Of a DNA stretch of 24,000 bases, positions 4,930-23,311 are shown piece by piece (positions within the stretch are counted from its first letter, which is position 1; each line of letters opens with the position of its first letter). The stretch is from Reichenbachiella versicolor. GTDB taxonomy: Bacteria; Bacteroidota; Bacteroidia; Cytophagales; Cyclobacteriaceae. The position numbers were made by a program, and so were the translations under genes. The notes beneath the pieces were generated by a model. It did not search any database, had not been told where the DNA came from, and saw only the letters and a program-made list of their open reading frames with translations. The stretch spans positions 1,094,684-1,118,683 of the forward strand of contig NZ_QFZQ01000001.1 in assembly GCF_003171675.1 (NCBI RefSeq), written 5' to 3'.

Positions 4930-5598
4930 ATGGAAAAACCTAACTCAAAATTCCCAACCTACAAAGACCATCTTAACAAGACTTTTCTTGAAGAGTTGAA
5001 CTACAAATTTTGGTCAACTAAAGCCATCAGGTTCGGAGCAAGTAAAAGGCTACTGACTCAAAACGACTTGTCAAATAAGGCAATTGGCTTCTTGTCAGCT
5101 TACTTAATCATTTTAGGACTGTTATCAGTTTATAAAATAACAGGAGAAACTGCTATAAGTGACAATCTTATTGCATTTGGTTCGACAACGTTATCTATCC
5201 TCTTACTTGCATTTAGCCAGATGGAAGCGGCTCAAGATTTCAAGATAAGGGCTCGAAACTATCAAGACTGTGCCCTTAAAATATCTGCTCTCTATGACGA
5301 ATTAAGAATATACAAAACGTTAGAAGATAAATCATTTAAACCTGATACAGACTTTTGTAAATCCATTAGTAACAAGTACCAAGACATATTGGAAAGTTAT
5401 CCTAATCATGACAGCATAGACTACGCTAAATTTAAAGCAGAGCATAAAGAATATTTCGAATTAAGTACGATGAATTGTTTGAAAATCAGACTAAAATACT
5501 ATCTCAAGGTACAGCTTGCATATCATCTGATGATCGTCATTCCTCTTGTGGTAATAGTTTTTTCTGTTGTCCATTCATTATCCGAAAAAAGTCTCTAA
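4930..5598 (+). CDS. 2-TM protein, SLATT-domain-like (SMODS/SLOG-associated 2TM effector family), stand-alone
   Basis: 222 aa. N-terminal YKFWSTKAIRFGASKRL is followed by two TM helices (AIGFLSAYLIILGLLSVY; LIAFGSTTLSILLLAFS), then a helical region EAAQDFKIRARNYQDCALKISALYDEL. This layout is as I recall for SLATT_5-type proteins. An extra C-terminal TM is present. Confidence 0.45.
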   Translation: MEKPNSKFPTYKDHLNKTFLEELNYKFWSTKAIRFGASKRLLTQNDLSNKAIGFLSAYLIILGLLSVYKITGETAISDNLIAFGSTTLSILLLAFSQMEAAQDFKIRARNYQDCALKISALYDELRIYKTLEDKSFKPDTDFCKSISNKYQDILESYPNHDSIDYAKFKAEHKEYFELSTMNCLKIRLKYYLKVQLAYHLMIVIPLVVIVFSVVHSLSEKSL

Positions 5599-12871: not shown

Positions 12872-13771
12872 ATGAAATACAATACCATCAAAACCCAGCT
12901 AGAGCCTAATTTACTTTCTCAGCGATTGTCCGAAGAAGAAAGCACACTTCTTCATACTACAAAGGCCAAAATCTTAAACAACCTATCTAATGCATATTAT
13001 GATCCTCAGTCATTGTCCGAAGAGATGAATATGTCTCACGTTCAACTCACACGAAAGATAAAGGCATTGACAGGATATACACCCGTAGACCTGATCAAGT
13101 ACTACCGGCTAGAATACGCCAGTGTATTGTTGCTTGAGACCAATGATTCGATCAAAGAGATTACCTACAAGACAGGTTTCCTTTTACAAGGTAACTTTTG
13201 TCGAACCTTCAAAAAATGGTTTCATAAAAGCCCTTCAGATTATCGATTGGAACATAAGAAGGAGCCATTGTCATTTAAGTATCACTGTAATAGTCCCTTC
13301 TCTAAAAATGACGTTCAGTACCTCACTTGGCTTCAAAACTCACATCCATTCATAGGTCAAGTGCTGTCTACTATTATAGAGAATATCCAGCAGGATGGAT
13401 TAAATGTAAGAATACTCGCTGGGTATTTGGCGGTCGAACCTGACTATATAGATAAGACAATAGATGAATTACTGAGTCTATCGGTAAAAAAATTTATCAA
13501 GAACGTTCGTTTACAGTATGCTGCGGAAGCTTTAGTGTATGATGATGCATCTGTCACCAGTATAGGCTATACCACTGGTTTTTTTGATACAGCCCATTTC
13601 AGTAGATCATTCAAGGAAGCGTATGACTGCACCCCATCAGTGTTTAGATCTACTATTCAGAAGGGGTCATTTCCACCTTTTTTAACCATAAATCTACTGA
13701 AGTCAAAAAAAGATAAGACGAGCCGTTTTTTATACAATCAATCAAAGCATTCAGAAGATAGGTTTGTATAA
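12872..13771 (+). CDS. AraC-family transcriptional regulator made of two tandem AraC-type HTH domains and no sensor domain
   Basis: Domain 1: LSEEMNMSHVQLTRKIKALTGYTPVDLIKYYRLEYASVLLLETNDSIKEITYKTGFLLQGNFCRTFKKWFHKSPSDYR. Domain 2: LAGYLAVEPDYIDKTIDELLSLSVKKFIKNVRLQYAAEALVYDDASVTSIGYTTGFFDTAHFSRSFKEAYDCTPSVFR. It ends 27 nt before the first Reb-like ORF, on the same strand. Confidence 0.7.
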   Translation: MKYNTIKTQLEPNLLSQRLSEEESTLLHTTKAKILNNLSNAYYDPQSLSEEMNMSHVQLTRKIKALTGYTPVDLIKYYRLEYASVLLLETNDSIKEITYKTGFLLQGNFCRTFKKWFHKSPSDYRLEHKKEPLSFKYHCNSPFSKNDVQYLTWLQNSHPFIGQVLSTIIENIQQDGLNVRILAGYLAVEPDYIDKTIDELLSLSVKKFIKNVRLQYAAEALVYDDASVTSIGYTTGFFDTAHFSRSFKEAYDCTPSVFRSTIQKGSFPPFLTINLLKSKKDKTSRFLYNQSKHSEDRFV

Positions 13772-13798: not shown

Positions 13799-13960
13799 AT
13801 GAGTCCTACATTGATACAAAGCTTTATTGCCATGACAGGGTCGATTGGCATGGTCATGCAAAACGGTGCTTCAAATCAGAAAAATGGTCAAATGGTTTCG
13901 ACAGCGTGTACCGGAGTAGCCTGTGCTATGATTGTGAAAAAAGGGGGCAATGCTAAGTGA
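13799..13960 (+). CDS. Short (53 aa) Reb-like 'core-only' protein; not in the supplied ORF track
   Basis: ATG 13799 to TGA 13960 gives MSPTLIQSFIAMTGSIGMVMQNGASNQKNGQMVSTACTGVACAMIVKKGGNAK. It aligns with the central RebB core (LYQATAQALANAAHNATTNQQQANITAQAATTQGVATLYA) at Q, N, NQ and GVA positions. It also resembles the N-domain of the collagen fusion ([30 protein letters not shown]). Confidence 0.4.
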   Translation: MSPTLIQSFIAMTGSIGMVMQNGASNQKNGQMVSTACTGVACAMIVKKGGNAK

Positions 13961-14021: not shown

Positions 14022-14360
14022 ATGGCAAATCAGCAAAATTCTTCAATTGGAGTCGTATCACAAGCTTCTACTCCGGTGTCTACTGTAGTAAGACAGGAGG
14101 GAGCAGGGAAAGCATACCAGTCGGTGGCGCAGTCTACTGCGATAGCCATTCAGGATGCTACGGATAACTTAAGAAACGTCAACACGATGAGCACTACAGC
14201 TCAGGGGGTAGCGATGGCACAGTTTCTCGCAACTGGTGAATCAAAGTACGCAAAGGCTCTGGAACTGGCTCAGTCTATGTCTGTAGCTGCTTCGGCTAAC
14301 TTCTTAACCGTTAGTACTAATGCGGCAGATGCACTTAAAGGATATCCCTCAGGACAGTAA
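14022..14360 (+). CDS. Divergent RebB-family (R-body/killing trait) protein, 112 aa
   Basis: AYQSVAQSTAIAIQDATDNLRNVNTMSTTAQGVAMAQFLATG parallels the canonical LYQATAQALANAAHNATTNQQQANITAQAATTQGVATLYA. It has N- and C-terminal extensions. Confidence 0.55.
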   Translation: MANQQNSSIGVVSQASTPVSTVVRQEGAGKAYQSVAQSTAIAIQDATDNLRNVNTMSTTAQGVAMAQFLATGESKYAKALELAQSMSVAASANFLTVSTNAADALKGYPSGQ

Positions 14361-14389: not shown

Positions 14390-15406
14390 ATGGTTTTCAT
14401 GGCTGGTAAACAGATTGACAATATCAATGCATTTTCATCGCAGTTTCTGACTACTTTGAAATTGATCAATGACGGATACGCATGGTTGAAATGGGCATTG
14501 ACCAATCCTGGGCTGTCAGTATACTATGCTCAAAATGAGCAGGACTTGTTGTTGAAGATACAGAGCGGTTTGCATGAGACGCTTTTGCTTCGATGCAAAG
14601 CATTTACCATCCATCTTGAGACCATTCTTACTTTTGATGAGGCTGATTTGGAGTTGCTTATTGAGTTGTTTGATACCAATGCCAGTCAGTCTGCCAGCAT
14701 AGCTTCACTGTCCAAAAGGTATTCACTGACGACTAATAAGCAGCTAGTGACGAATGCATCTTTTCTTAAGCAATACAATCAAACCGATGCTCCAGTTTTC
14801 CAAGGAATAGGATTTGAGGATCAATTGGAGCTATACAAGTTTCAGAAATCTATCAAGGAAGGAGAGGAAACAAATGAAGCGATAGCCTTTGCACTGAGTA
14901 AGGCTTCTAACAGTAGTGAATTTGTGCACTACTCTAACTTCTATATCAATTGTATCAATCATCAACTCACTGATCAGCCTGACTCTGCAGCCAGATCAGA
15001 GCAGATCAATGATATGTACAATATGTTGGACAATGTGTGTTTTAACCTGATCTACGTGCCTCAGGTAGGGTCTTTTAATTCACAGAAGGAATTGATGGAT
15101 CATCTGAAGGATTTTATTTCAACTACCAAATTCGTAGGGTATCAGATGAAGGCATCAGCTATGGATAGCTTATCTAAAAACATACCTATTCATGGGGCAT
15201 CGGATGAGCAACTACGAAAGAACATAGAACAGTTTTTGTCATTCATCAAACAAGAAGTGGCTAGAGGACAATTTGAACCCGAACCTATGCCACAGGATGG
15301 TCAAGAACAGTTATTTAGTATAACGACTGAAAAATACAAAACAACCATAGTAGTAGATACGGAGAGCAATTTGTTCTTATCACCTACTTCGGGGTCAATT
15401 GAATAA
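14390..15406 (+). CDS. Hypothetical protein (338 aa, predicted helical), no recognisable domain; embedded among Reb-like genes
   Basis: Long uninterrupted ORF on the same strand with 29 nt spacing from the upstream gene. There is no TM or signal peptide and no motif I can name. Confidence 0.6.
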   Translation: MVFMAGKQIDNINAFSSQFLTTLKLINDGYAWLKWALTNPGLSVYYAQNEQDLLLKIQSGLHETLLLRCKAFTIHLETILTFDEADLELLIELFDTNASQSASIASLSKRYSLTTNKQLVTNASFLKQYNQTDAPVFQGIGFEDQLELYKFQKSIKEGEETNEAIAFALSKASNSSEFVHYSNFYINCINHQLTDQPDSAARSEQINDMYNMLDNVCFNLIYVPQVGSFNSQKELMDHLKDFISTTKFVGYQMKASAMDSLSKNIPIHGASDEQLRKNIEQFLSFIKQEVARGQFEPEPMPQDGQEQLFSITTEKYKTTIVVDTESNLFLSPTSGSIE

Positions 15407-15520: not shown

Positions 15521-16027
15521 ATGGACAATTCAGAGATAATAAACAACCTGAAGCAGCTTCAGGATTTGCTTACCGAGAGAGAGGAGTCTAAGTCAATGAC
15601 TATGGTAAACACCGTGATGGCGGAGACTCTGGGAATGTCGATGCACAATGCAGTCTCCGCTCAGCACAATGCCCAAATGGTCAATGCTGCTGCGACTACG
15701 AGCACCTGTGCGAGGATCATTGCAACAATAGGAGAGAAACCTCATACTCCAGGCCCTCCAGGTCCTCCGGGTCCAAAAGGTCCTGCGGGTGAAATAGGAC
15801 CAGATGGTTTGAGAGGACCTGTAGGAGCGACGGGGGCACAAGGTCCGATTGGCATCGTAGGTGAGCAAGGTCCTAAAGGAGAGCCTGGCAATCCATCTGA
15901 AACGGTGAAGGTGGAGATCGTAGATAATCCGAGCAGTACACCTAGCAAAACGGATCCGCCGGCTACTCCAACGACTCCAACTACACCTAGTAGTCCTTCG
16001 AACCCTAATCCGGGTGGTAGTCACTGA
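15521..16027 (+). CDS. Reb-like N-terminal domain fused to a collagen-like triple-helix repeat and a Pro/Thr/Ser-rich tail
   Basis: The N-terminus [43 protein letters not shown] is Reb-core-like. Then 16 uninterrupted G-X-Y triplets follow ([48 protein letters not shown], nt 15752..15895). The tail is [29 protein letters not shown]. Confidence 0.7.
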
Positions 16028-16101
16028 ACTGCAAAAGTGGCTGGACACTTAGGAAAGTTGTACGGACACTTAAAACGAAAGAATAACTCATAGATAAGAA
16101 T

Positions 16102-16329
16102 ATGCAGAAGTCAACCGTAAATGCTCAAGTAACCGATTCACTAACTGAGACCAATACTTTGGTAGTGGGGCAAGCACCATCAGTGGCGGTAAGTACGCTC
16201 TATCAAGCGACTGCTCAGGCGATGGGTAATGCTGCTCACAATTCGACGGTGATTCAGCAGCAAGGAAGTATAGTAGCGCAAGCTGTAGGAGCACAGGCTG
16301 TTAATCTAGTCTATTCGATCAAGTTTTAA
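16102..16329 (+). CDS. RebB-family R-body protein, short divergent paralog (75 aa, lacks the C-terminal DTA..G.AT tail)
   Basis: MQKSTVNAQVTDSLTETNTLVVGQAPSVAVSTLYQATAQAMGNAAHNS... has the same N-terminal and core motifs as the four downstream paralogs. Confidence 0.75.
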   Translation: MQKSTVNAQVTDSLTETNTLVVGQAPSVAVSTLYQATAQAMGNAAHNSTVIQQQGSIVAQAVGAQAVNLVYSIKF

Positions 16330-16453: not shown

Positions 16454-16723
16454 ATGGCTCAGAATACACCAGTCAACAGCCAGATTACCGACTCGGTAAC
16501 TCAGGCAAACACAAAGGTACTAGGCGATGCAGCTGCGGTAGCTATGGGAAACCTCTATCAAGCGACTGCACAAGCACTAGGTAATGCAGCACACAACTCT
16601 GCTACTGCGATACAGCAAACTAATGTAACTGCTCAGGCAGCTACTACTATGGGAGTGGCGACGTTGTACGCTATCGATACGGCATCTACTGGGGTAGCTA
16701 CCTCTAAGGTTCTTAATTCCTAA
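16454..16723 (+). CDS. rebB: RebB-family R-body ('killing trait') structural protein, paralog 2
   Basis: VNSQITDSVTQANTKVLGDAAAVAMGNLYQATAQALGNAAHNS...TAQAATTMGVATLYAIDTASTG carries the signature I recall for RebA/RebB/RebD of Caedibacter (NSQITD.VTQ.N.KV.G..PA.AMG.LYQ). Confidence 0.85.
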   Translation: MAQNTPVNSQITDSVTQANTKVLGDAAAVAMGNLYQATAQALGNAAHNSATAIQQTNVTAQAATTMGVATLYAIDTASTGVATSKVLNS

Positions 16724-16754: not shown

Positions 16755-17024
16755 ATGGCATTTCCAACCGCAGTAAACAGTCAGATAACTGACTCAGTTA
16801 CTCAAGCAAATGTGATGAGCCTGGGCGTTGCTCCAGCTGTTGCAATGGCCAATTTATACCAGGCAACAGCACAAGCATTAGCCAACGCTGCTCACAATGC
16901 GACTACTAGTCAGCAACAAACCAATATCACAGCGCAAGCTGCAACAGCTCAAGGAGTGGCTCTATTGTATTCTTTGGATACGGCTGCCACAGGCATAGCT
17001 ACTAAAGACATCTTAAATAGCTAA
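16755..17024 (+). CDS. rebB: RebB-family R-body structural protein, paralog 3
   Basis: MAFPTAVNSQITDSVTQANVMSLGVAPAVAMANLYQATAQALANAAHNATTSQQQTNITAQAATAQGVALLYSLDTAATG. Confidence 0.85.
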   Translation: MAFPTAVNSQITDSVTQANVMSLGVAPAVAMANLYQATAQALANAAHNATTSQQQTNITAQAATAQGVALLYSLDTAATGIATKDILNS

Positions 17025-17107: not shown

Positions 17108-17377
17108 ATGGCATTTCCTACATCAGTTAATGATCAAATCACAGATTCAGTTACCCAAGCCAATACCAAAGTATTGGGTGACGCTCCTTCGGTAGCTTTA
17201 GGTAATCTTTATCAGGCTACAGCACAGGCACTGGCAAACGCTGCTCACAACGCAACGACTAGTCAGTCACAAACCAATGTTACTGCTCAGGCAGCGACAA
17301 CTATGGGTGTCACGACGCTATATGCGATAGATACTGCTTCTACAGGAGTAGCAACTAGCGACATCTTGAATTCTTAA
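17108..17377 (+). CDS. rebB: RebB-family R-body structural protein, paralog 4
   Basis: The track ORF starts at GTG 17069. The internal ATG at 17108 gives MAFPTSVNDQITDSVTQANTKVLGDAPSVALGNLYQ..., collinear with the other 88-89 aa paralogs. Confidence 0.85.
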   Translation: MAFPTSVNDQITDSVTQANTKVLGDAPSVALGNLYQATAQALANAAHNATTSQSQTNVTAQAATTMGVTTLYAIDTASTGVATSDILNS

Positions 17378-17427: not shown

Positions 17428-17694
17428 ATGGCTTTTCCAACTGCAGTTAATAGTCAAATAACAGACTCAGTAACCCAGGCAAATACTAAAGTATTGGGTG
17501 ATGCTCCATCGGTAGCAATGGGTAACCTGTATCAAGCAACAGCGCAAGCTTTAGCTAATGCAGCTCACAATGCTACTACTAATCAGCAGCAAGCTAATAT
17601 CACAGCTCAAGCAGCTACTACTCAAGGTGTAGCTACGCTATATGCTATCGATACAGCTTCTACTGGTAAGGCGACTAGCAAAATATTTGCTTAG
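17428..17694 (+). CDS. rebB: RebB-family R-body structural protein, paralog 5
   Basis: MAFPTAVNSQITDSVTQANTKVLGDAPSVAMGNLYQATAQALANAAHNATTNQQQANITAQAATTQGVATLYAIDTASTG. Confidence 0.85.
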   Translation: MAFPTAVNSQITDSVTQANTKVLGDAPSVAMGNLYQATAQALANAAHNATTNQQQANITAQAATTQGVATLYAIDTASTGKATSKIFA

Positions 17695-17846: not shown

Positions 17847-18401
17847 ATGTCATCTCCAAAGCCTCAGCAGAACCATCCCGCCGAACAAGATTTGGCGGTA
17901 TTTGATGAAAGTAAAAAGCAATTTCAACATGAGTTGGAAGTGCTAAAGAGTCAGACAGAGATGGCTAGACAAAAGACTTTAGCATCTATTAAAGAAGGTA
18001 TTCTCAAAGCTAAGCAGGACGGCCTTCACCAAACTTTATTTCCAGGAACTGATTTATTCAAAGACATGTCACAAAAACAAAATCAAGAACAAGTATCTAA
18101 CGCTAACGATCCAACACCACAAATAGCTAATGCTCAAGAGGCTATGGCTTACACTGATGATCACATGAAGGAGTTGATTAACAATATGTCCAATCAACTA
18201 AAGTCCGCTATGACTGGTGCTACTCAGGCCACTGAAGAGGCTAAAAAGATAACAGGACTAGCCAATGATAATATGAAGCAAGCTGTCCAAGCAGAACAAA
18301 GCACTATCAATCATAGCAATGAGACTGTGCAGCAAGAAATGCTAAAAGCACAAGAAGCCGTGGCTAAGACCATTAACAGTGAACCTTCTAACGAAGCATA
18401 A
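17847..18401 (+). CDS. Hypothetical Q/A/E/K-rich, probably coiled-coil protein (184 aa)
   Basis: Heptad-like helical low-complexity sequence (ELEVLKSQTEMARQKTLASIKEGILKAKQ; MKQAVQAEQSTINHSNETVQQEMLKAQEAVAK). No TM and no catalytic motif. Confidence 0.55.
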   Translation: MSSPKPQQNHPAEQDLAVFDESKKQFQHELEVLKSQTEMARQKTLASIKEGILKAKQDGLHQTLFPGTDLFKDMSQKQNQEQVSNANDPTPQIANAQEAMAYTDDHMKELINNMSNQLKSAMTGATQATEEAKKITGLANDNMKQAVQAEQSTINHSNETVQQEMLKAQEAVAKTINSEPSNEA

Positions 18402-18431: not shown

Positions 18432-20327
18432 ATGCCTATTCAAGAGATACAATCATTAGCCCAATTTGCTGATGAGACATTAGTTCTCGTTGGCAAAGCC
18501 AATCAATCATCGGCAAGCGAGATGACTCCATACCTACAAGAGTGGAGTCAAAAACTATCGCAAGCCGTTACAGGTATGGGGGCTTCTAACCAAGTACAAT
18601 TAATAAAAGAACAGTTCAATCTGGACGATCAATCCATTGCATTTATCCTACTCACCTTATTGCCAGCACTGGATACTAAGTATACAGACTTCTTCAAGGA
18701 AGCTTCATCAAACCCTGCAAGAAAAATACCCACTATTGATTTGGTGAGCTCTTTGATGTGTGATAGTTACGATCAAAAAACGACTTTCATCAATCAGCTA
18801 AGAGATGATTCTCCGATCTTCAAATGGAGAATGCTAAAAAGGCTAGGAGATGATTTTATCCAATCTGAGTTACTTCCTGGAAAGGATTTGGTGTTGCATT
18901 TGGCTTCTACCAATGAGCTCACAAGAGACGCATCTGGACTGGTCAGCCAAATAACAAAGCCAGCGCTAGGCATACCCGCAGATCAGGTAAAGAACAAGCC
19001 TATCGGTCAGATTATTAGTATTATTGGAGGAATCGATGCTCGAAGGAAATCTTATGCCTTCAACTGTAGTCAAATGCTACAAAGACCATTGTATCAATTC
19101 AATGCTGAACTTTTTCAGTCGATCAAAGATCCAGTGGGAGAGTTGACTGAGACCTTGCTCTTTGTGATGCTTAGAAACGGAGTACTCTATTGGGAAGATG
19201 GTATATCTACTTTTCAAGAACAAGCTGATGTAGCCAAGCTCATTCGCTCATGGTTAAGCATGAAGAATAGCCTGTTGATTGTAGGACAAGACGAACATAA
19301 AACGCTACCTACTATATTCAAGAATATTAATACCGATTCAGTTACACTGGTCAAGGCTGATCAGAAGATCAATCAGTTGATATGGGAAAGTGTAGGCAAT
19401 GAGTTTTTGCAAGTCACCAATGTCGATTATAAGCAGCTCAGCAATACTTATACAACCGACTACACTCGGATAGAAGAAACCATGCGCCGAGCCGCTGAGG
19501 GGAAAGAAAAAACTGGAGTTGCAGTGACGACCGAGGCGGTTATTAGTGATTATTTGGCTACAAGTCCTGAGAAAGTTACGGACATGGCTAGCAGAGATCA
19601 TTCGTCCTATAGCTTCGAAGATATGATTCTGCCCAAGGATACACAGTCAGGCATTGATCATCTGGTAAAAGCCTATCAACAAAGGGCTAAAGTGAACCCA
19701 GCTCATCCTGCGGGTATCATAGCCATATTTGAAGGAGCTAAAGGTACAGGCAAAACTATGGCAGCGATATGTTTAGCCAATCAGCTAGGGATACCACTCT
19801 ACAAGGTTGATTACAGTGCGTTGGTTGGAGTATCTCAAGATGCTGAGAAGACGCTCAATCTATTGTTTGCAGAAGCAGAACGAAATACGGCTTTATTGCT
19901 ATTCGATAATGCTGACAATTTGTTTACTGAGTCGGAGACTTCCGATACGCATCGTGCACTGATATCTACCTTGATTCAAAAAATGGAGTCCTATGGCTGT
20001 TTGATCCTATTGGCCACGAGTGATAAGCCAAAGGTCAGTAAGGAATTGTTCCAGAGAGCCTTGATGCAAGTAGACTTTCCAGTTTTAAATAGTAAGGATC
20101 AGTATGCCTTGTTTACTAAGATTTTGGCTCAAAAAGGAATAAAAATTAAGAATGAAAGCCAGCTTCAAGACATGGTTAAAAAGCTAGGCGCCAATGGAAG
20201 ACAAATCCAGAATATAGTACAAAATGCCATCATTTCATCGGATGGAGAGCATGTTCCACTGCAAGAATTAGAAATCACAGCCAATGACCTAGCTAAGGCC
20301 ATTGATTTAGAAAAAAAGAAACAATAA
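18432..20327 (+). CDS. AAA+ ATPase (single C-terminal AAA module, ~430 aa unknown N-terminal region) with degenerate Walker B
   Basis: Walker A is GAKGTGKT (19734..19757). Walker B is LLLFDN (19893..19910), with Asn where the catalytic Glu is expected (FDNADNLF versus the usual FDEADALF). The sensor-1 region is LILLATSDKP. A second region of homology is RALMQVDFPVLNSKDQYALF. Confidence 0.8.
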   Translation: MPIQEIQSLAQFADETLVLVGKANQSSASEMTPYLQEWSQKLSQAVTGMGASNQVQLIKEQFNLDDQSIAFILLTLLPALDTKYTDFFKEASSNPARKIPTIDLVSSLMCDSYDQKTTFINQLRDDSPIFKWRMLKRLGDDFIQSELLPGKDLVLHLASTNELTRDASGLVSQITKPALGIPADQVKNKPIGQIISIIGGIDARRKSYAFNCSQMLQRPLYQFNAELFQSIKDPVGELTETLLFVMLRNGVLYWEDGISTFQEQADVAKLIRSWLSMKNSLLIVGQDEHKTLPTIFKNINTDSVTLVKADQKINQLIWESVGNEFLQVTNVDYKQLSNTYTTDYTRIEETMRRAAEGKEKTGVAVTTEAVISDYLATSPEKVTDMASRDHSSYSFEDMILPKDTQSGIDHLVKAYQQRAKVNPAHPAGIIAIFEGAKGTGKTMAAICLANQLGIPLYKVDYSALVGVSQDAEKTLNLLFAEAERNTALLLFDNADNLFTESETSDTHRALISTLIQKMESYGCLILLATSDKPKVSKELFQRALMQVDFPVLNSKDQYALFTKILAQKGIKIKNESQLQDMVKKLGANGRQIQNIVQNAIISSDGEHVPLQELEITANDLAKAIDLEKKKQ

Positions 20328-20332
20328 CTGAT

Positions 20333-20668
20333 ATGAAACCTGAAGATTTTCCTATAGCTAGTATTATTAAGCCAGAACCTGTTGAGAATGAGTCTAAGCC
20401 TAATAATGATTCTTCTTCACCTATTTCTAAGATGCCCGAAAATGATGAGAATACAGTTTCGAGCCCAAGCGCATCATCCTCAAATGCGAATCAGAATGAA
20501 AACAACTTGAATTCTGCTAGCGCTGAACCTGAAGTAACTAATGCAGAAAATAAACAAGAGGATACGCGAGTGAACACCACGGAAAAAGCCCCCATATCTA
20601 ATGGATCATGGGAGTTAACATTTGAAGAAAATTTATTTCTTCTGGAATTCGACCTTTTCAATGAATAA
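20333..20668 (+). CDS. Acidic, Ser/Asn/Glu-rich low-complexity protein with a short hydrophobic C-terminal motif
   Basis: 111 aa, predicted disordered (NNDSSSPISKMPENDENTVSSPSASSSNANQNENNLNSASAEPE), ending in WELTFEENLFLLEFDLFNE. It starts 5 nt after the AAA+ stop. Confidence 0.5.
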   Translation: MKPEDFPIASIIKPEPVENESKPNNDSSSPISKMPENDENTVSSPSASSSNANQNENNLNSASAEPEVTNAENKQEDTRVNTTEKAPISNGSWELTFEENLFLLEFDLFNE

Positions 20669-20681
20669 TTAAATAGAACCA

Positions 20682-22043
20682 ATGAGACTTTTTATATACA
20701 AAAACAACAGACTACTAGATGTTATAAAGTCTAGTTATACTGGTCAATCAACACTGTCAGATGTATTTAGTCCTACGATTACTTCTAAGTATTTATTGGA
20801 TAAGGATAAGGGTACGGGTACGGATACAAGAGAATCAATATTTTGGGCAACAGCCATGCTGGCCATAAAAGCAGTGAAATTCAAAGCTTCAATAAATGTT
20901 CTAAAAAATATTGCTAAGGAGGATAATTCTGGTCGGACTATTCTAGTAGATCAATCTTCAAGCACAAAAGAATCAAACGGTTATGATTTCTATCTTGATC
21001 GAGATACAGGCTGGTGTGCTCTAGCAAAAAACTATACTATTTATCGCGAAATAGGAGGAGCAGGAAATATCCCAGATAAGAATTCTTATTTGCAGTCTGT
21101 ACAAACCCCTCCTTGGCTGGACTACAAAAATCATTATGGATTTTTCTCAACTGATGGGTCTGAGAGTTTCGCAAAGAAGTTGATTAAAGGAGAGGAGTCT
21201 ATAATTCCTTTTGGAGCAGGTAATTTCTATGGAGAGAAGTTTGCCATGACTTTGAATCATTTGCAGGATATGTCTAGAGTATCAATGCTAGTGTCTGAAA
21301 CGGTCAGAGCAGTTTTAATAGTCGAATGGCCTGCGGCAGTATATGATGTTTCAATATTTAGCTACATACAAGGAGAAGATCAAAAGAAAACAGCCCTAAA
21401 CGAGTATAACAAGTTTATGAAAGAAATGGATGTGTCTCACCAAGATATAAGCGCTTTCAATTATCCATCAACTCCTGCCATCGGAACAGATTCTTTTTTG
21501 GACAAATTGCAAAGAGTTGAATTATACATTATAGCAGCATATCAACAGTTAAAAACATTGATTTCCTGTTATCATTTTGACAACACTTCACTAAATAAAG
21601 AGCTTTATCAAAAAATATGTAGTGGCATTCTTTATGCCTTGAGCAAAGTTTGTAAACATCTTGGAAATCTGATCAGTGGGGCTATTCATTCTGCTTTAGG
21701 GCCTGCGGATCTAGGGATAAGCGATTTAGGTAAAGAACTGTTTAACAGTCTTTCTGATACATTGGATAAGAAGCATGCACTCTATGAAAATGGTGGACAT
21801 TCTGAGGGCGTAAAAGTGGCATTAGATAATATGCTTGATACAATCGTTATCTCTTATGTGATTTTCGATTTATTTCTTCTTAAATGGGGGGTAGCGGAAG
21901 TGGTGACAAAACGAACTCCAGATCAAATTAAAGACAAGTTGGATATGGTTCGTAAACTAATAGTTGCTAAAAATAAAAAAGTGCCGCACTCTGTCATAGA
22001 AAGACTCAAAGAAGAACTTTCTCCACAAATGAAAGGAAAATAG
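20682..22043 (+). CDS. Hypothetical protein (453 aa), no recognisable domain
   Basis: Long ORF starting 13 nt after the upstream stop. There is one hydrophobic stretch near the C-terminus (IVISYVIFDLFLLKWGV). No motif I can name. Confidence 0.6.
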   Translation: MRLFIYKNNRLLDVIKSSYTGQSTLSDVFSPTITSKYLLDKDKGTGTDTRESIFWATAMLAIKAVKFKASINVLKNIAKEDNSGRTILVDQSSSTKESNGYDFYLDRDTGWCALAKNYTIYREIGGAGNIPDKNSYLQSVQTPPWLDYKNHYGFFSTDGSESFAKKLIKGEESIIPFGAGNFYGEKFAMTLNHLQDMSRVSMLVSETVRAVLIVEWPAAVYDVSIFSYIQGEDQKKTALNEYNKFMKEMDVSHQDISAFNYPSTPAIGTDSFLDKLQRVELYIIAAYQQLKTLISCYHFDNTSLNKELYQKICSGILYALSKVCKHLGNLISGAIHSALGPADLGISDLGKELFNSLSDTLDKKHALYENGGHSEGVKVALDNMLDTIVISYVIFDLFLLKWGVAEVVTKRTPDQIKDKLDMVRKLIVAKNKKVPHSVIERLKEELSPQMKGK

Positions 22044-22075
22044 ATCTGTTGAACATTTGAAAATTCAATCATACC

Positions 22076-23311
22076 ATGACACCCACACCTTCTTCACATA
22101 CTACATCAGGGGCACCTATGCCTCCTATGCCGTTAGTAACGGCAAGTCATTCAGGTAGATCTGCTGCAAGCTCTACTGCACCTCCCTCAAGTGCTAGAGA
22201 AATATTACTCATCTGGTTTAACGGAACAGGTACACCAATGGAAGATATGGCGCCTCTATTGACACACCTGCATCTATCACCTAGTCAGATGCAGTCTATT
22301 TCAGGACTGGGAACAGAAGACAACCTCATATCCTCCAAGGCTTTGTCTTCCAATTCAAATCTTCATAGTACAGGAAGCTGGTTTGATCCGACTTCATATA
22401 CGCTATTCAATACAATACTTGGAACCAAGGATACTACAGCAGGGTATGCAGAGAGAAACCAATTCGCGTCTATCAATGCTGTATTTAATACCATAGACAA
22501 GATTTCCACTTCTTCTAGTTCCAATATAGAATTGATCATTGGGGGACATAGTAGAGGAGCGGCAGCAGGAATAATAGGATTTCTATCATCACTATTAGAG
22601 GCTATTTCCAAGGACAAGAGTTTTAGGGAAAGTCCCTTGTACAAGAAAGTGAAGAAAATACACGTGATCTCGGTAGATCCTGTAGCTGGACAACGAGGAA
22701 ACGATTTGACAGGAGGGGAAGATATACGAATAGATCAGCTATATAAAAGCATCCAGAGTAAGTTCGAAAACACCTCTTTGATCAGTACTACTTTATACCA
22801 AGCCAGATTTGATTGTCGAGATGAGTTCAAAGCAGATGATAAATGGTTAAATTATCTAAAAGCCAACTACAACTTTGTCACAGCAACTTCTACTAACCCT
22901 AGTTTTAGGTATTACATAGCAGGTTTTAGGCATTCAATAATGATCTATCCCAATGATGGAGAACTATCAAAATCATTGTATGCCAATACACAAGTAACCC
23001 CATTAAACTTATTGATCAATATCATCAATGATATAGTAGGCAATACGAATACCGCACAGACCATATTTGATCAATTAATAGCCCTAGAAAAGGAAACTGT
23101 TTTCAATCTAAAACTATATCCATTAGGCTATCCAAAATTATCCTACGCTACTTCAGTAGATGGGTATAGCGCCATAGAGAAAGCATTGTCTAAGATATAT
23201 GTTTTCACAGGAACAAGTCTGGTAGATACGGTCAAGGACAAACCAGACAGCATTCTTGTATCAAGTACACCAGTCAACAATAGATACACTTTTTACTTCT
23301 TCAATAAATAA
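22076..23311 (+). CDS. DUF2235 / T6SS Tle1-like alpha/beta hydrolase (candidate phospholipase toxin) with disordered Pro/Ser/Thr/Ala-rich N-terminus
   Basis: LLIWFNGTGT corresponds to the DUF2235 'v.fDGTgN' block. The nucleophile elbow is GGHSRGAAAG (Ser codon 22550..22552; compare GFSRGA in Tle1). The Asp block is HVISVDPVAG and the His block is IAGFRHSIM. The first ~40 aa are MTPTPSSHTTSGAPMPPMPLVTASHSGRSAASSTAPPSSA. There is no signal peptide. Confidence 0.6.
   Translation: MTPTPSSHTTSGAPMPPMPLVTASHSGRSAASSTAPPSSAREILLIWFNGTGTPMEDMAPLLTHLHLSPSQMQSISGLGTEDNLISSKALSSNSNLHSTGSWFDPTSYTLFNTILGTKDTTAGYAERNQFASINAVFNTIDKISTSSSSNIELIIGGHSRGAAAGIIGFLSSLLEAISKDKSFRESPLYKKVKKIHVISVDPVAGQRGNDLTGGEDIRIDQLYKSIQSKFENTSLISTTLYQARFDCRDEFKADDKWLNYLKANYNFVTATSTNPSFRYYIAGFRHSIMIYPNDGELSKSLYANTQVTPLNLLINIINDIVGNTNTAQTIFDQLIALEKETVFNLKLYPLGYPKLSYATSVDGYSAIEKALSKIYVFTGTSLVDTVKDKPDSILVSSTPVNNRYTFYFFNK

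Follow-up and report, generated by a model that had tools for sequence, protein, structure and literature searches.

We analysed a 24,000-nucleotide stretch of the Reichenbachiella versicolor genome (hereafter the window; positions count from its first letter), which contains a cluster of reb genes. R-bodies are coiled ribbons able to spring open, pH-triggered protein actuators that are studied as membrane-breaking devices. One gene of the cluster, at 15521-16027, encodes a protein that joins a Reb-like head to a collagen-like tail, and an earlier examination based on the letters alone (the sequence-only reading) had described it as a Reb-like domain of ~70 amino acids (aa) fused to 16 collagen triplets and a Pro/Thr/Ser-rich tail. 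We are highly confident that this fusion protein is an accessory Reb of the type known as HP1.3, or secondary group S2, with a collagen-like variant of the tail. The parts of the gene are the following.

15521-16027, + strand: complete open reading frame (ORF) starting with ATG, 168 aa plus stop; accessory Reb of S2/HP1.3 type with a collagen-like tail
15521-15733, + strand: Reb-like N-terminal domain, residues 1-71, predicted single long alpha-helix (Pfam RebB; hhalign; AlphaFold2)
15707-15709, + strand: codon (TGT) of Cys63, a residue that does not vary in the S2-type clade and lies 14 residues ahead of the first collagen Gly
15710-15751, + strand: linker, residues 64-77; in each of the 23 fusion proteins, Cys and first Gly are 12-16 residues apart
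15752-15895, + strand: collagen-like tract, residues 78-125, 16 uninterrupted G-X-Y triplets with a GPPGPPGP start and a conserved core (script; Pfam)
15896-16024, + strand: Pro/Ser/Thr-rich low-complexity tail, residues 126-168 (composition; its opening motif is common to the closest homolog, P0001)

Both Pfam checks that the sequence-only reading had suggested came out above cut-off. RebB (PF11747) matched residues 23-68 with 44.6 bits (cut-off 24; E 1.6e-11), covering profile positions 18-63 of 68, and Collagen (PF01391) matched residues 77-126 with 36.9 bits (cut-off 27.2; E 3e-9); the Pfam scan of the 168-aa protein detected no domain besides these two. The Reb likeness of the head was upheld by profile-profile comparison (hhalign) of the N-domain family with primary Reb proteins, which gave 96.9% probability and E 1.7e-10 over 64 columns (Reb columns 4-67). 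It stood only in part, however, since the QITD region is not covered (profile positions 1-17 are unmatched), so that the protein is better regarded as a divergent "secondary" Reb than as a structural subunit of the RebA/RebB type. A hidden Markov model built from the window's five primary Rebs did not recover the fusion protein at E 1e-3.

Primary Rebs are about 80-115 aa long, bear a QITD motif at the N-terminus and end in a short, charged domain 4 (PMC13430693), whereas the fusion protein has 168 aa and lacks the QITD motif. Because homology to the primary Rebs ends at Reb column 67, just before Cys63, the charged, heterogeneous domain 4 is what the Cys, the linker, the collagen tract and the tail replace. 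Cys63 was invariant in alignments of 21, 36 and 143 sequences; it is the single Cys among the five positions invariant across the 143 clade sequences, whose signature ends in TTSTCARIL. This invariance is notable because Reb proteins rarely contain Cys, a rarity that the 2026 survey of the family stresses (PMC13430693). A covalent link, a metal site or acylation are possible roles for the residue.

With the 143-sequence alignment, AlphaFold2 modelled residues 3-71 of the monomer as one continuous helix (predicted local distance difference test (pLDDT) 83-95) followed by an extended chain. The predicted helix would span about 10 nm and is homologous to domains 1-3 of the primary Reb subunits. 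A monomer model from 17 sequences was uninformative (pLDDT 54), and the collagen tract was extended in the monomer models, with pLDDT 41-79. Foldseek found no match to the AlphaFold2 model in the PDB, and a PDB sequence search with a primary Reb likewise found nothing, while the same search with the fusion protein returned collagens only (E down to 4.8e-9). Inspection of the protein, whose N-terminus is hydrophilic, showed neither a signal peptide nor LPXTG or another anchor, in keeping with a partner of R-bodies in the cytoplasm.

A script confirmed that residues 78-125 form exactly 16 uninterrupted G-X-Y triplets in a single run, and the Pro/Thr/Ser character of the 43-aa tail was equally evident from its composition (10 Pro, 8 Ser and 8 Thr); the sequence after the Cys motif is 23% Pro overall. 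The collagen segment has a G+C content of 59%, against 38% for the window. To place this tract among its relatives, we drew on two samples. A first homolog search yielded 16 database proteins (P numbers) carrying both Pfam domains, at 40-70% identity and all from metagenomes or metagenome-assembled genomes (MAGs), and each of the ten of them whose clusters were looked up proved to be a singleton. A scan of one genome per GTDB species gave 36 loci (L numbers) with a relative of the head domain, and the architecture was found in seven GTDB loci, one of which, L006, encodes the same protein as P0007. These are a Chryseobacterium MAG with 26 triplets, three Bacteroidota MAGs (L002-L004) with 20-21, a Roseivirga MAG with 16, a further Bacteroidota MAG with 14 and a Desulfobacteraceae MAG with 53. 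Together with the window protein, and less the duplicate, this survey for RebB plus collagen architectures thus amounts to 23 fusion proteins. The best relatives are at 55-64% identity, and the Roseivirga MAG locus (L005) is the closest over several genes.

Each of the 23 fusion proteins contains exactly one uninterrupted run, of 12-53 triplets and mostly of 14-17. In all 23 the run starts 12-16 residues after the invariant Cys, usually with GPPGPP-like triplets. After six or seven triplets the runs have a core in common, GL[RQ] GP[ST] G[SA]T GA[QK] G[PSV]I G[MV][TV] GPx. This seven-triplet core showed an X/Y identity of 0.42, compared with 0.22 +/- 0.018 under a triplet-shuffle null (maximum 0.27 in 500 trials), which argues that the tracts are homologous to each other rather than independent inventions. 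A Gly at every third position 16 times in a row cannot be a product of chance, and the architecture recurs in homologs.

Among the closely related loci L001, L002 and L003, the coding indels measure exactly 9 or 18 base pairs (bp), that is, whole triplets, and all fall within the collagen tract or the Pro-rich tail after it. In the collagen-plus-tail part, synonymous and non-synonymous codon differences stand at 13:2 and 33:12, and 14 of 21 shared Gly codons have changed synonymously. Judging from these codon comparisons, the collagen tract is under purifying selection, with the Gly register and the core kept. In the window gene, a DNA tandem repeat (9-bp unit) is confined to 15747-15774, corresponding to the first three triplets, and the rest of the tract is non-repetitive; this, together with the selection seen in the relatives, indicates a tract that is old and maintained rather than a fresh product of slippage.

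Sequence beyond the collagen run also shows some conservation. The opening of the tail (15896-15931) matches the QPIKVEIVPNP of P0001, directly after the collagen run, and a Trp-rich SWWRxWS motif occurs in the tails of P0005, P0008 and P0014. Clade-conserved short motifs of this kind right after the run imply that the tails are not purely low-complexity.

Membership in the HP1.3/S2 class and variation of the tail

The genes that bear on the identity of the fusion protein lie directly around it, in the following order.

13799-13960, + strand: short distant Reb homolog of 53 aa, HP1.4/S1-type (Pfam RebB, 27.4 bits; homologs in 20/36 loci)
14022-14360, + strand: 112-aa protein, HP1.2/S3-type (45-72% identity in 34/36 loci; no Pfam or NCBIfam family)
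14390-15406, + strand: 338-aa protein, HP1.1-type, directly upstream of the fusion gene (homologs in 27/36 loci; no Pfam or NCBIfam family)
16102-16329, 16454-16723, 16755-17024, 17108-17377 and 17428-17694, + strand: five primary reb genes (Pfam RebB, 78-108 bits each)

This arrangement corresponds to a described synteny. In their Group 1, Raymann et al. (2013) distinguished HP1.1, of about 360 aa, HP1.2, of about 110-120 aa, and two distant Reb homologs, HP1.3, of about 170 aa and thus twice the typical Reb length, and HP1.4, of 60-80 aa (PMC3583457). The 2026 survey renamed the Reb-like members as "secondary" groups, of which S1, S2 and S3 co-occur with group 1, and S2 proteins carry a Pro-rich C-terminal extension, the seed being the 184-aa htRebF of Hydrogenophaga taeniospiralis (WP_068173300.1; PMC13430693). 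The fusion protein shows the length of this class (168 aa, against 88-89 aa for the neighbouring Rebs), its gene adjoins HP1.4/S1, HP1.2/S3 and HP1.1 genes and several primary rebs, and it has the Pro-rich extension, although the collagen periodicity lies outside the published definition.

The same gene set recurs beyond the window. Most of the 36 loci, from Bacteroidota, Proteobacteria, Desulfobacterota and others, combine an S1-like gene, an S3-like gene, a gene for a protein of ~340 aa, a long Reb and 4-9 primary rebs, and in nearly all of them the relative of the head domain stands at the edge of the primary array. In Bacteroidota its place is upstream of the array, in Proteobacteria and Desulfobacterota downstream of it; the order in Burkholderia, Uliginosibacterium and Arenicella is reb array, S1, S2, S3, HP1.1. 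Homologs of the HP1.1 type, present in 27 loci, always adjoin S3- and S2-type genes. The occurrence of HP1.1-HP1.4 as a set in the window and in most of the 36 loci identifies the fusion gene, by sequence and synteny, as the HP1.3 ortholog. Membership in S2 is very probable, the assignment following the published group description rather than the seed htRebF. A third homolog search found relatives in Burkholderiales (Curvibacter, Piscinibacter and Roseateles; Comamonadaceae), Xanthomonas and Stenotrophomonas, and no named Hydrogenophaga protein was among the 120 relatives it listed. Separately, we note that the 112-aa HP1.2/S3-type protein is more conserved across phyla than the accessory Reb itself.

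The sequence-only reading had presented the protein as a new fusion to a ribbon subunit, and this view does not hold, the protein being an ortholog of a known accessory class in which collagen is one variant of the tail. In every family member a low-complexity extension begins a few residues past the CARIL motif. Among 173 tails of at least 40 aa, taken from 200 S2-motif proteins retrieved, the first 30 residues have a median Pro content of 33%. Tails rich in Pro and Thr occur in Pedobacter, Mucilaginibacter, Flavipsychrobacter and Sediminibacterium, one of them with about 110 residues of (TP)n. In Proteobacteria a Pro-rich stretch is followed by a conserved Ala/Gln-rich helical segment with hydrophobic residues at a 3-4 spacing (for example in L029) and then by more Pro-rich sequence, and JGI labels one homolog a coiled-coil protein; the helical segment and this annotation suggest that S2 tails may often carry an oligomerising element. 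Four Xanthomonas citri homologs of about 308 aa (P0356, P0361, P0372 and P0379) are annotated as "Translation initiation factor IF-2 (modular protein)", a label that on proteobacterial S2-type Rebs is likely a misannotation, presumably arising from the Pro-rich tails.

A collagen run was present in 16 of the 200 S2-motif proteins, a biased sample from which no frequency should be estimated, and none of the 120 proteobacterial relatives among the matches listed had a Collagen domain. A homolog search with a profile of the 68-aa head retrieved only proteins shorter than 150 aa and hence gives no measure of how often collagen is attached. In an exhaustive representative search with a profile of the whole fusion, which was dominated by long multi-repeat collagens, the full-length single-stretch matches were the known fusions only. 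In a neighbour-joining tree of the ~70-residue head (low resolution), the collagen bearers form no fewer than three clusters with non-collagen members between them, and P0017, a neighbour of the window's own clade, has a long helical tail in place of collagen. On this comparison, tail modules have evidently been exchanged or lost repeatedly, and the collagen tail is a rare but recurrent variant of the S2 class.

Two other origins were considered and rejected. The Pro/Thr tails do not represent frameshifted collagen: no G-X-Y run occurs in the other frames in Bacteroidota, and the scan of the other frames of non-collagen orthologs returned a single, non-collagen-like run of seven triplets, in Desulfatibacillum. 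As regards a viral origin or a link to phage tail fibres, no relative was found in IMG/VR viral contigs.

The statement that such a fusion had no prior description held for the literature searched. Full-text literature searches combining R-body, RebB or killing trait with collagen gave nothing relevant, and the word "collagen" is absent from PMC3583457, PMC13430693 and the PA14 paper PMC8322103. In the databases the fusion proteins are annotated as "RebB family R body protein" or as hypothetical only. As far as the papers searched go, the collagen tail is an undescribed variant of a known, functionally uncharacterised accessory class.

The surrounding cluster

Outward from these genes, the cluster, in which all genes from 12872 to the window end lie on the + strand, extends in both directions, and one further gene upstream of it deserves mention.

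4930-5598, + strand: SLATT_5 domain protein (Pfam, 179 bits), of a SMODS/SLOG-associated two-transmembrane effector family
12872-13771, + strand: AraC-family regulator at the cluster head (Pfam HTH_18, 132 bits; homolog at the same position in Bacteroidota loci)
17847-18401, + strand: 184-aa protein following the reb array
18432-20327, + strand: winged-helix plus AAA ATPase (Pfam domains)
20333-23311, + strand: three consecutive ORFs of 111, 453 and 411 aa without a family match
23321-24000, running past the window end, + strand: GH25 muramidase with an N-terminal membrane anchor (Pfam, 161 bits)

The two closest loci, L037 and L038, share the gene order of the window: AraC, a 51-aa Reb, a protein of ~110 aa, one of ~340 aa, RebB plus Collagen, five to six Rebs, a protein of ~185 aa, the winged-helix AAA ATPase, unknowns and GH25. 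In both, the GH25 gene closes the co-directional cluster (16475-17224 in L037 and 18461-19222 in L038), and the muramidase might couple cell lysis to R-body release. Among the three consecutive ORFs before it, only that of 453 aa has a homolog, in the Roseivirga MAG locus L005; the 111-, 453- and 411-aa products may be candidates for cargo or toxins belonging to the R-body cluster.

Homologs of the AAA ATPase were seen only in collagen-bearing Bacteroidota loci (L001, L002, L005, L037 and L038), and the gene is absent within the flanks of the Pedobacter, Mucilaginibacter and Chitinophagaceae-type loci. A "QITD-type" collagen bearer, L039, has no AAA ATPase nearby. Going by this distribution, the co-occurrence of the ATPase with collagen could reflect lineage rather than function.

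The SLATT_5 gene lies about 8 kb upstream of the reb cluster, and Fib_succ_major and GH43 domains were detected by Pfam among other genes of the window, which, like the closest relatives, indicate a Bacteroidota genome. A scan of the cluster for sigma-70 promoters and terminators gave counts at or below shuffle level, the scan being unsuited to Bacteroidota.

What the collagen-like tail may do

Starting from the homology, synteny, Gly-register conservation and selection described above, we infer a picture in which the protein would be a minor subunit, its Reb-like helix packed against those of primary Rebs within the ribbon or on its surface. Wherever three copies came to be neighbours, the collagen tract would zip up from the conserved imino-rich GPPGPPGP end next to the helix, and a rigid triple-helical rod of about 14 nm would result (48 residues at the collagen rise of 0.286 nm per residue). 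Such a rod would hold the flexible Pro/Thr tail off the ribbon, at the end where primary Rebs bear domain 4, and could serve as a bristle or spacer, or else as a staple of three chains with an influence on ribbon assembly and layer stacking. The Pro-rich tails of most S2 proteins would be expected to be extended as well (polyproline-II-like). The collagen tail thus hints that the S2 accessory protein works as a three-chain stalk. We give this full picture of a ribbon-associated stalk a probability of roughly 0.45.

Its parts do not stand equally. That the tract forms a triple helix seems to us probable, the support being indirect and evolutionary: the Gly register, the whole-triplet indels and the conserved core. 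As to the association with the ribbon, the secondary Reb RapA, which has Pro-rich extensions, co-localises with Pseudomonas aeruginosa R-bodies and co-purifies with them in amounts like those of RebP1/P2 (PMC8322103), and RebD is a minor incorporated component of type-51 R-bodies (bioRxiv 10.64898/2026.05.21.725848). By analogy, both provide indirect precedents for a ribbon-associated accessory subunit. The sequence-only reading had suggested that the protein might decorate the ribbon surface, as BclA does on the Bacillus exosporium, or nucleate or cap polymerisation, and both proposals are plausible.

Several points weigh against the stalk. With 16 triplets, no hydroxyproline and no globular domain recognised as trimerising, the tract may have only marginal stability as a triple helix. 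In many orthologs, from Pedobacter, Mucilaginibacter and Sediminibacterium, the tail is simply rich in Pro and Thr and shows no evident means of oligomerising, so that trimerisation is not essential to the class. A brush of ~14 nm rods also seems hard to reconcile with the packing of a tightly rolled lamella, unless the protein is sparse or restricted to edges or ends. Finally, RebC of Caedibacter steers assembly without being incorporated (bioRxiv 10.64898/2026.05.21.725848), which implies that an accessory protein need not stay in the ribbon.

This last point leads to a first alternative, in which the collagen trimer joins three Reb-like helices in order to nucleate, cap or steer polymerisation and the protein is absent, or nearly so, from the finished ribbon, like RebC. 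A single-copy gene beside five primary reb genes, conserved in most related clusters, would suit such a factor, and the linker between helix and collagen, held to 12-16 residues, suggests that head and rod are structurally coupled. RebC and RebD of type-51 R-bodies both act on the assembly pathway, and regulatory roles have been proposed for the secondary Reb proteins (PMC13430693). However, the tails vary widely, in length (10-220 residues) as in sequence, a variability more usual in exposed spacers than in precise nucleation machinery; many orthologs are without an oligomerising tail of any kind; and RapA, the sole secondary Reb tested, stays with the R-body. We therefore consider a role confined to assembly possible, but rather doubtful.

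A second alternative is that no triple helix forms and the G-X-Y tract is simply another monomeric, flexible, extended Pro/Gly-rich spacer. The same position in orthologs holds non-collagen Pro-rich sequence, the tract is short, no trimerisation domain was found by Pfam, and GPQ-type sub-repeats in L001-L004 expand and contract by slippage. Bacteria also make no hydroxyproline; yet collagen-like triple helices form without it in Scl2, BclA and phage fibres. Disorder does not require Gly at every third position, and still 23 proteins whose heads are at 40-60% identity each keep one perfect run, in which indels span whole triplets and the changes in Gly codons are all synonymous. Moreover, the seven-triplet core is conserved at X and Y and the window tract is non-repetitive DNA. 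We rate a tract that acts purely as a monomeric spacer about as probable as a role confined to assembly.

A bolder proposal makes a cytoplasmic collagen triple helix a functional component of the R-body: the rod would staple S2 helices in threes, and the resulting three-fold unit would seed the lattice or bridge neighbouring layers at a fixed distance of ~14 nm. The conserved hydrophobic core motif would dock a partner from the cluster, such as the winged-helix AAA ATPase, and melting or unfolding of the rod could contribute to assembly or release of the roll. We regard this as quite improbable in its entirety.

It is very improbable that the protein is a secreted or surface collagen-like adhesin or fibre of the Scl, Lcl, BclA or phage tail-fibre type that merely sits inside a reb cluster. 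Such a reading draws on NCBIfam matches to Scl2/SclB, Lcl and Scl1 and on phage tail-fibre proteins among the collagen-only matches of the homolog search. The former are weak and confined to the G-X-Y tract (bits against cut-off: SclB 36.7 vs 325, Lcl 34.9 vs 500, SclA 29.6 vs 400), the protein lacks the export and anchoring signals sought above, its head is a Reb domain, and its position in the reb cluster is conserved.

The remaining alternative, an annotation artefact, concerns two ORFs on the opposite strand.

15593-16048, - strand: antisense shadow ORF of 151 aa, no Pfam family
15742-15948, - strand: antisense shadow ORF of 68 aa, no Pfam family

Both had been noted earlier and ascribed to the GC-rich repeat; they exist, but the repeat alone does not account for the 151-aa ORF, which reaches past it at both sides. 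We consider both to be shadows of the coding frame rather than genes, because they have no Pfam match and the + strand frame is conserved. That the true gene is antisense, or that the ORF is a frameshift chimera or pseudogene, can in practice be set aside: long antisense ORFs do overlap the gene, but they have no family match, whereas the + frame matches two Pfam families and 22 homologs of the same architecture with colinear domains, and is under purifying selection in relatives.

The accessory proteins HP1.1-HP1.4, or S1-S4, are conserved across phyla, and for S2 the collagen tail supplies a concrete hypothesis, namely a rod-like extension, probably of three chains, at the domain-4 end of the helix. 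Bacterial collagen-like proteins have so far been known from cell surfaces, spores and phage fibres. A ribbon-associated stalk, if real, would add a cytoplasmic, polymer-associated setting to bacterial collagen biology and would possibly be the first collagen-like rod on an intracellular bacterial polymer; if the tract is only a spacer, the finding shrinks to a small observation on how tails vary within a single Reb subgroup.

Comparison with known systems

The closest known relatives are the HP1.3/S2 proteins themselves, which are, like the fusion protein, distant Rebs of about twice the primary length, encoded by a single-copy gene beside HP1.4/S1, HP1.2/S3, HP1.1 and primary rebs, and furnished with a Pro-rich extension. 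Their tails are irregular Pro-rich sequences (followed in Proteobacteria by the Ala/Gln-rich helix), whereas that of the fusion protein consists of a strict (G-X-Y)16 and a Pro/Thr tail. The fusion protein further differs in that its gene is placed, as in Bacteroidota, upstream of the reb array instead of downstream, and in that its head is without the QITD motif.

Among proteins with experimental data, RapA (PA14_27680, WP_003108962.1, group S4, of P. aeruginosa PA14; PMC8322103) resembles the fusion protein as a divergent Reb encoded in a reb cluster and bearing Pro-rich extensions. By its description it differs in belonging to S4 and to group-2 synteny, in having extensions at both ends and in lacking a collagen repeat. 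It is nonetheless the only such protein shown on R-bodies, and so offers the best analogy in function for an accessory subunit associated with the ribbon. RebC and RebD of Caedibacter taeniospiralis (type-51) are likewise products of a reb operon that are minor or not incorporated and that steer towards an ordered, extendable roll. Unlike the fusion protein, both are tail-less; RebC lacks homology to Rebs and is without relatives beyond Caedibacter, and RebD is a short Reb of the primary type.

On the collagen side, Scl1/Scl2 of Streptococcus, Lcl of Legionella, BclA of the Bacillus exosporium nap and phage fibres share with the fusion protein an uninterrupted G-X-Y tract with Pro-rich X positions and charged residues, from which a triple-helical stalk would be expected even in the absence of hydroxyproline. 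These proteins are secreted, anchored or parts of virions and possess a globular trimerisation domain, whereas the fusion protein has none of these features, carries a helical Reb head instead and is encoded in a cluster for a cytoplasmic polymer; its NCBIfam scores of 30-37 bits lie an order of magnitude below the family cut-offs of 325-500, and it does not belong to the Scl, Lcl or BclA families. The filaments of BclA follow a rod-plus-tail logic similar to that of the fusion protein, which is a resemblance only. In the collectins (SP-D, MBL) and macrophage scavenger receptor A, a coiled coil adjoins the collagen helix, and the helical bundle can set its register and nucleate it. The juxtaposition of a helical Reb head and a collagen-like tract recalls these proteins as an architectural analogy only, for they are eukaryotic, extracellular and unrelated in sequence.

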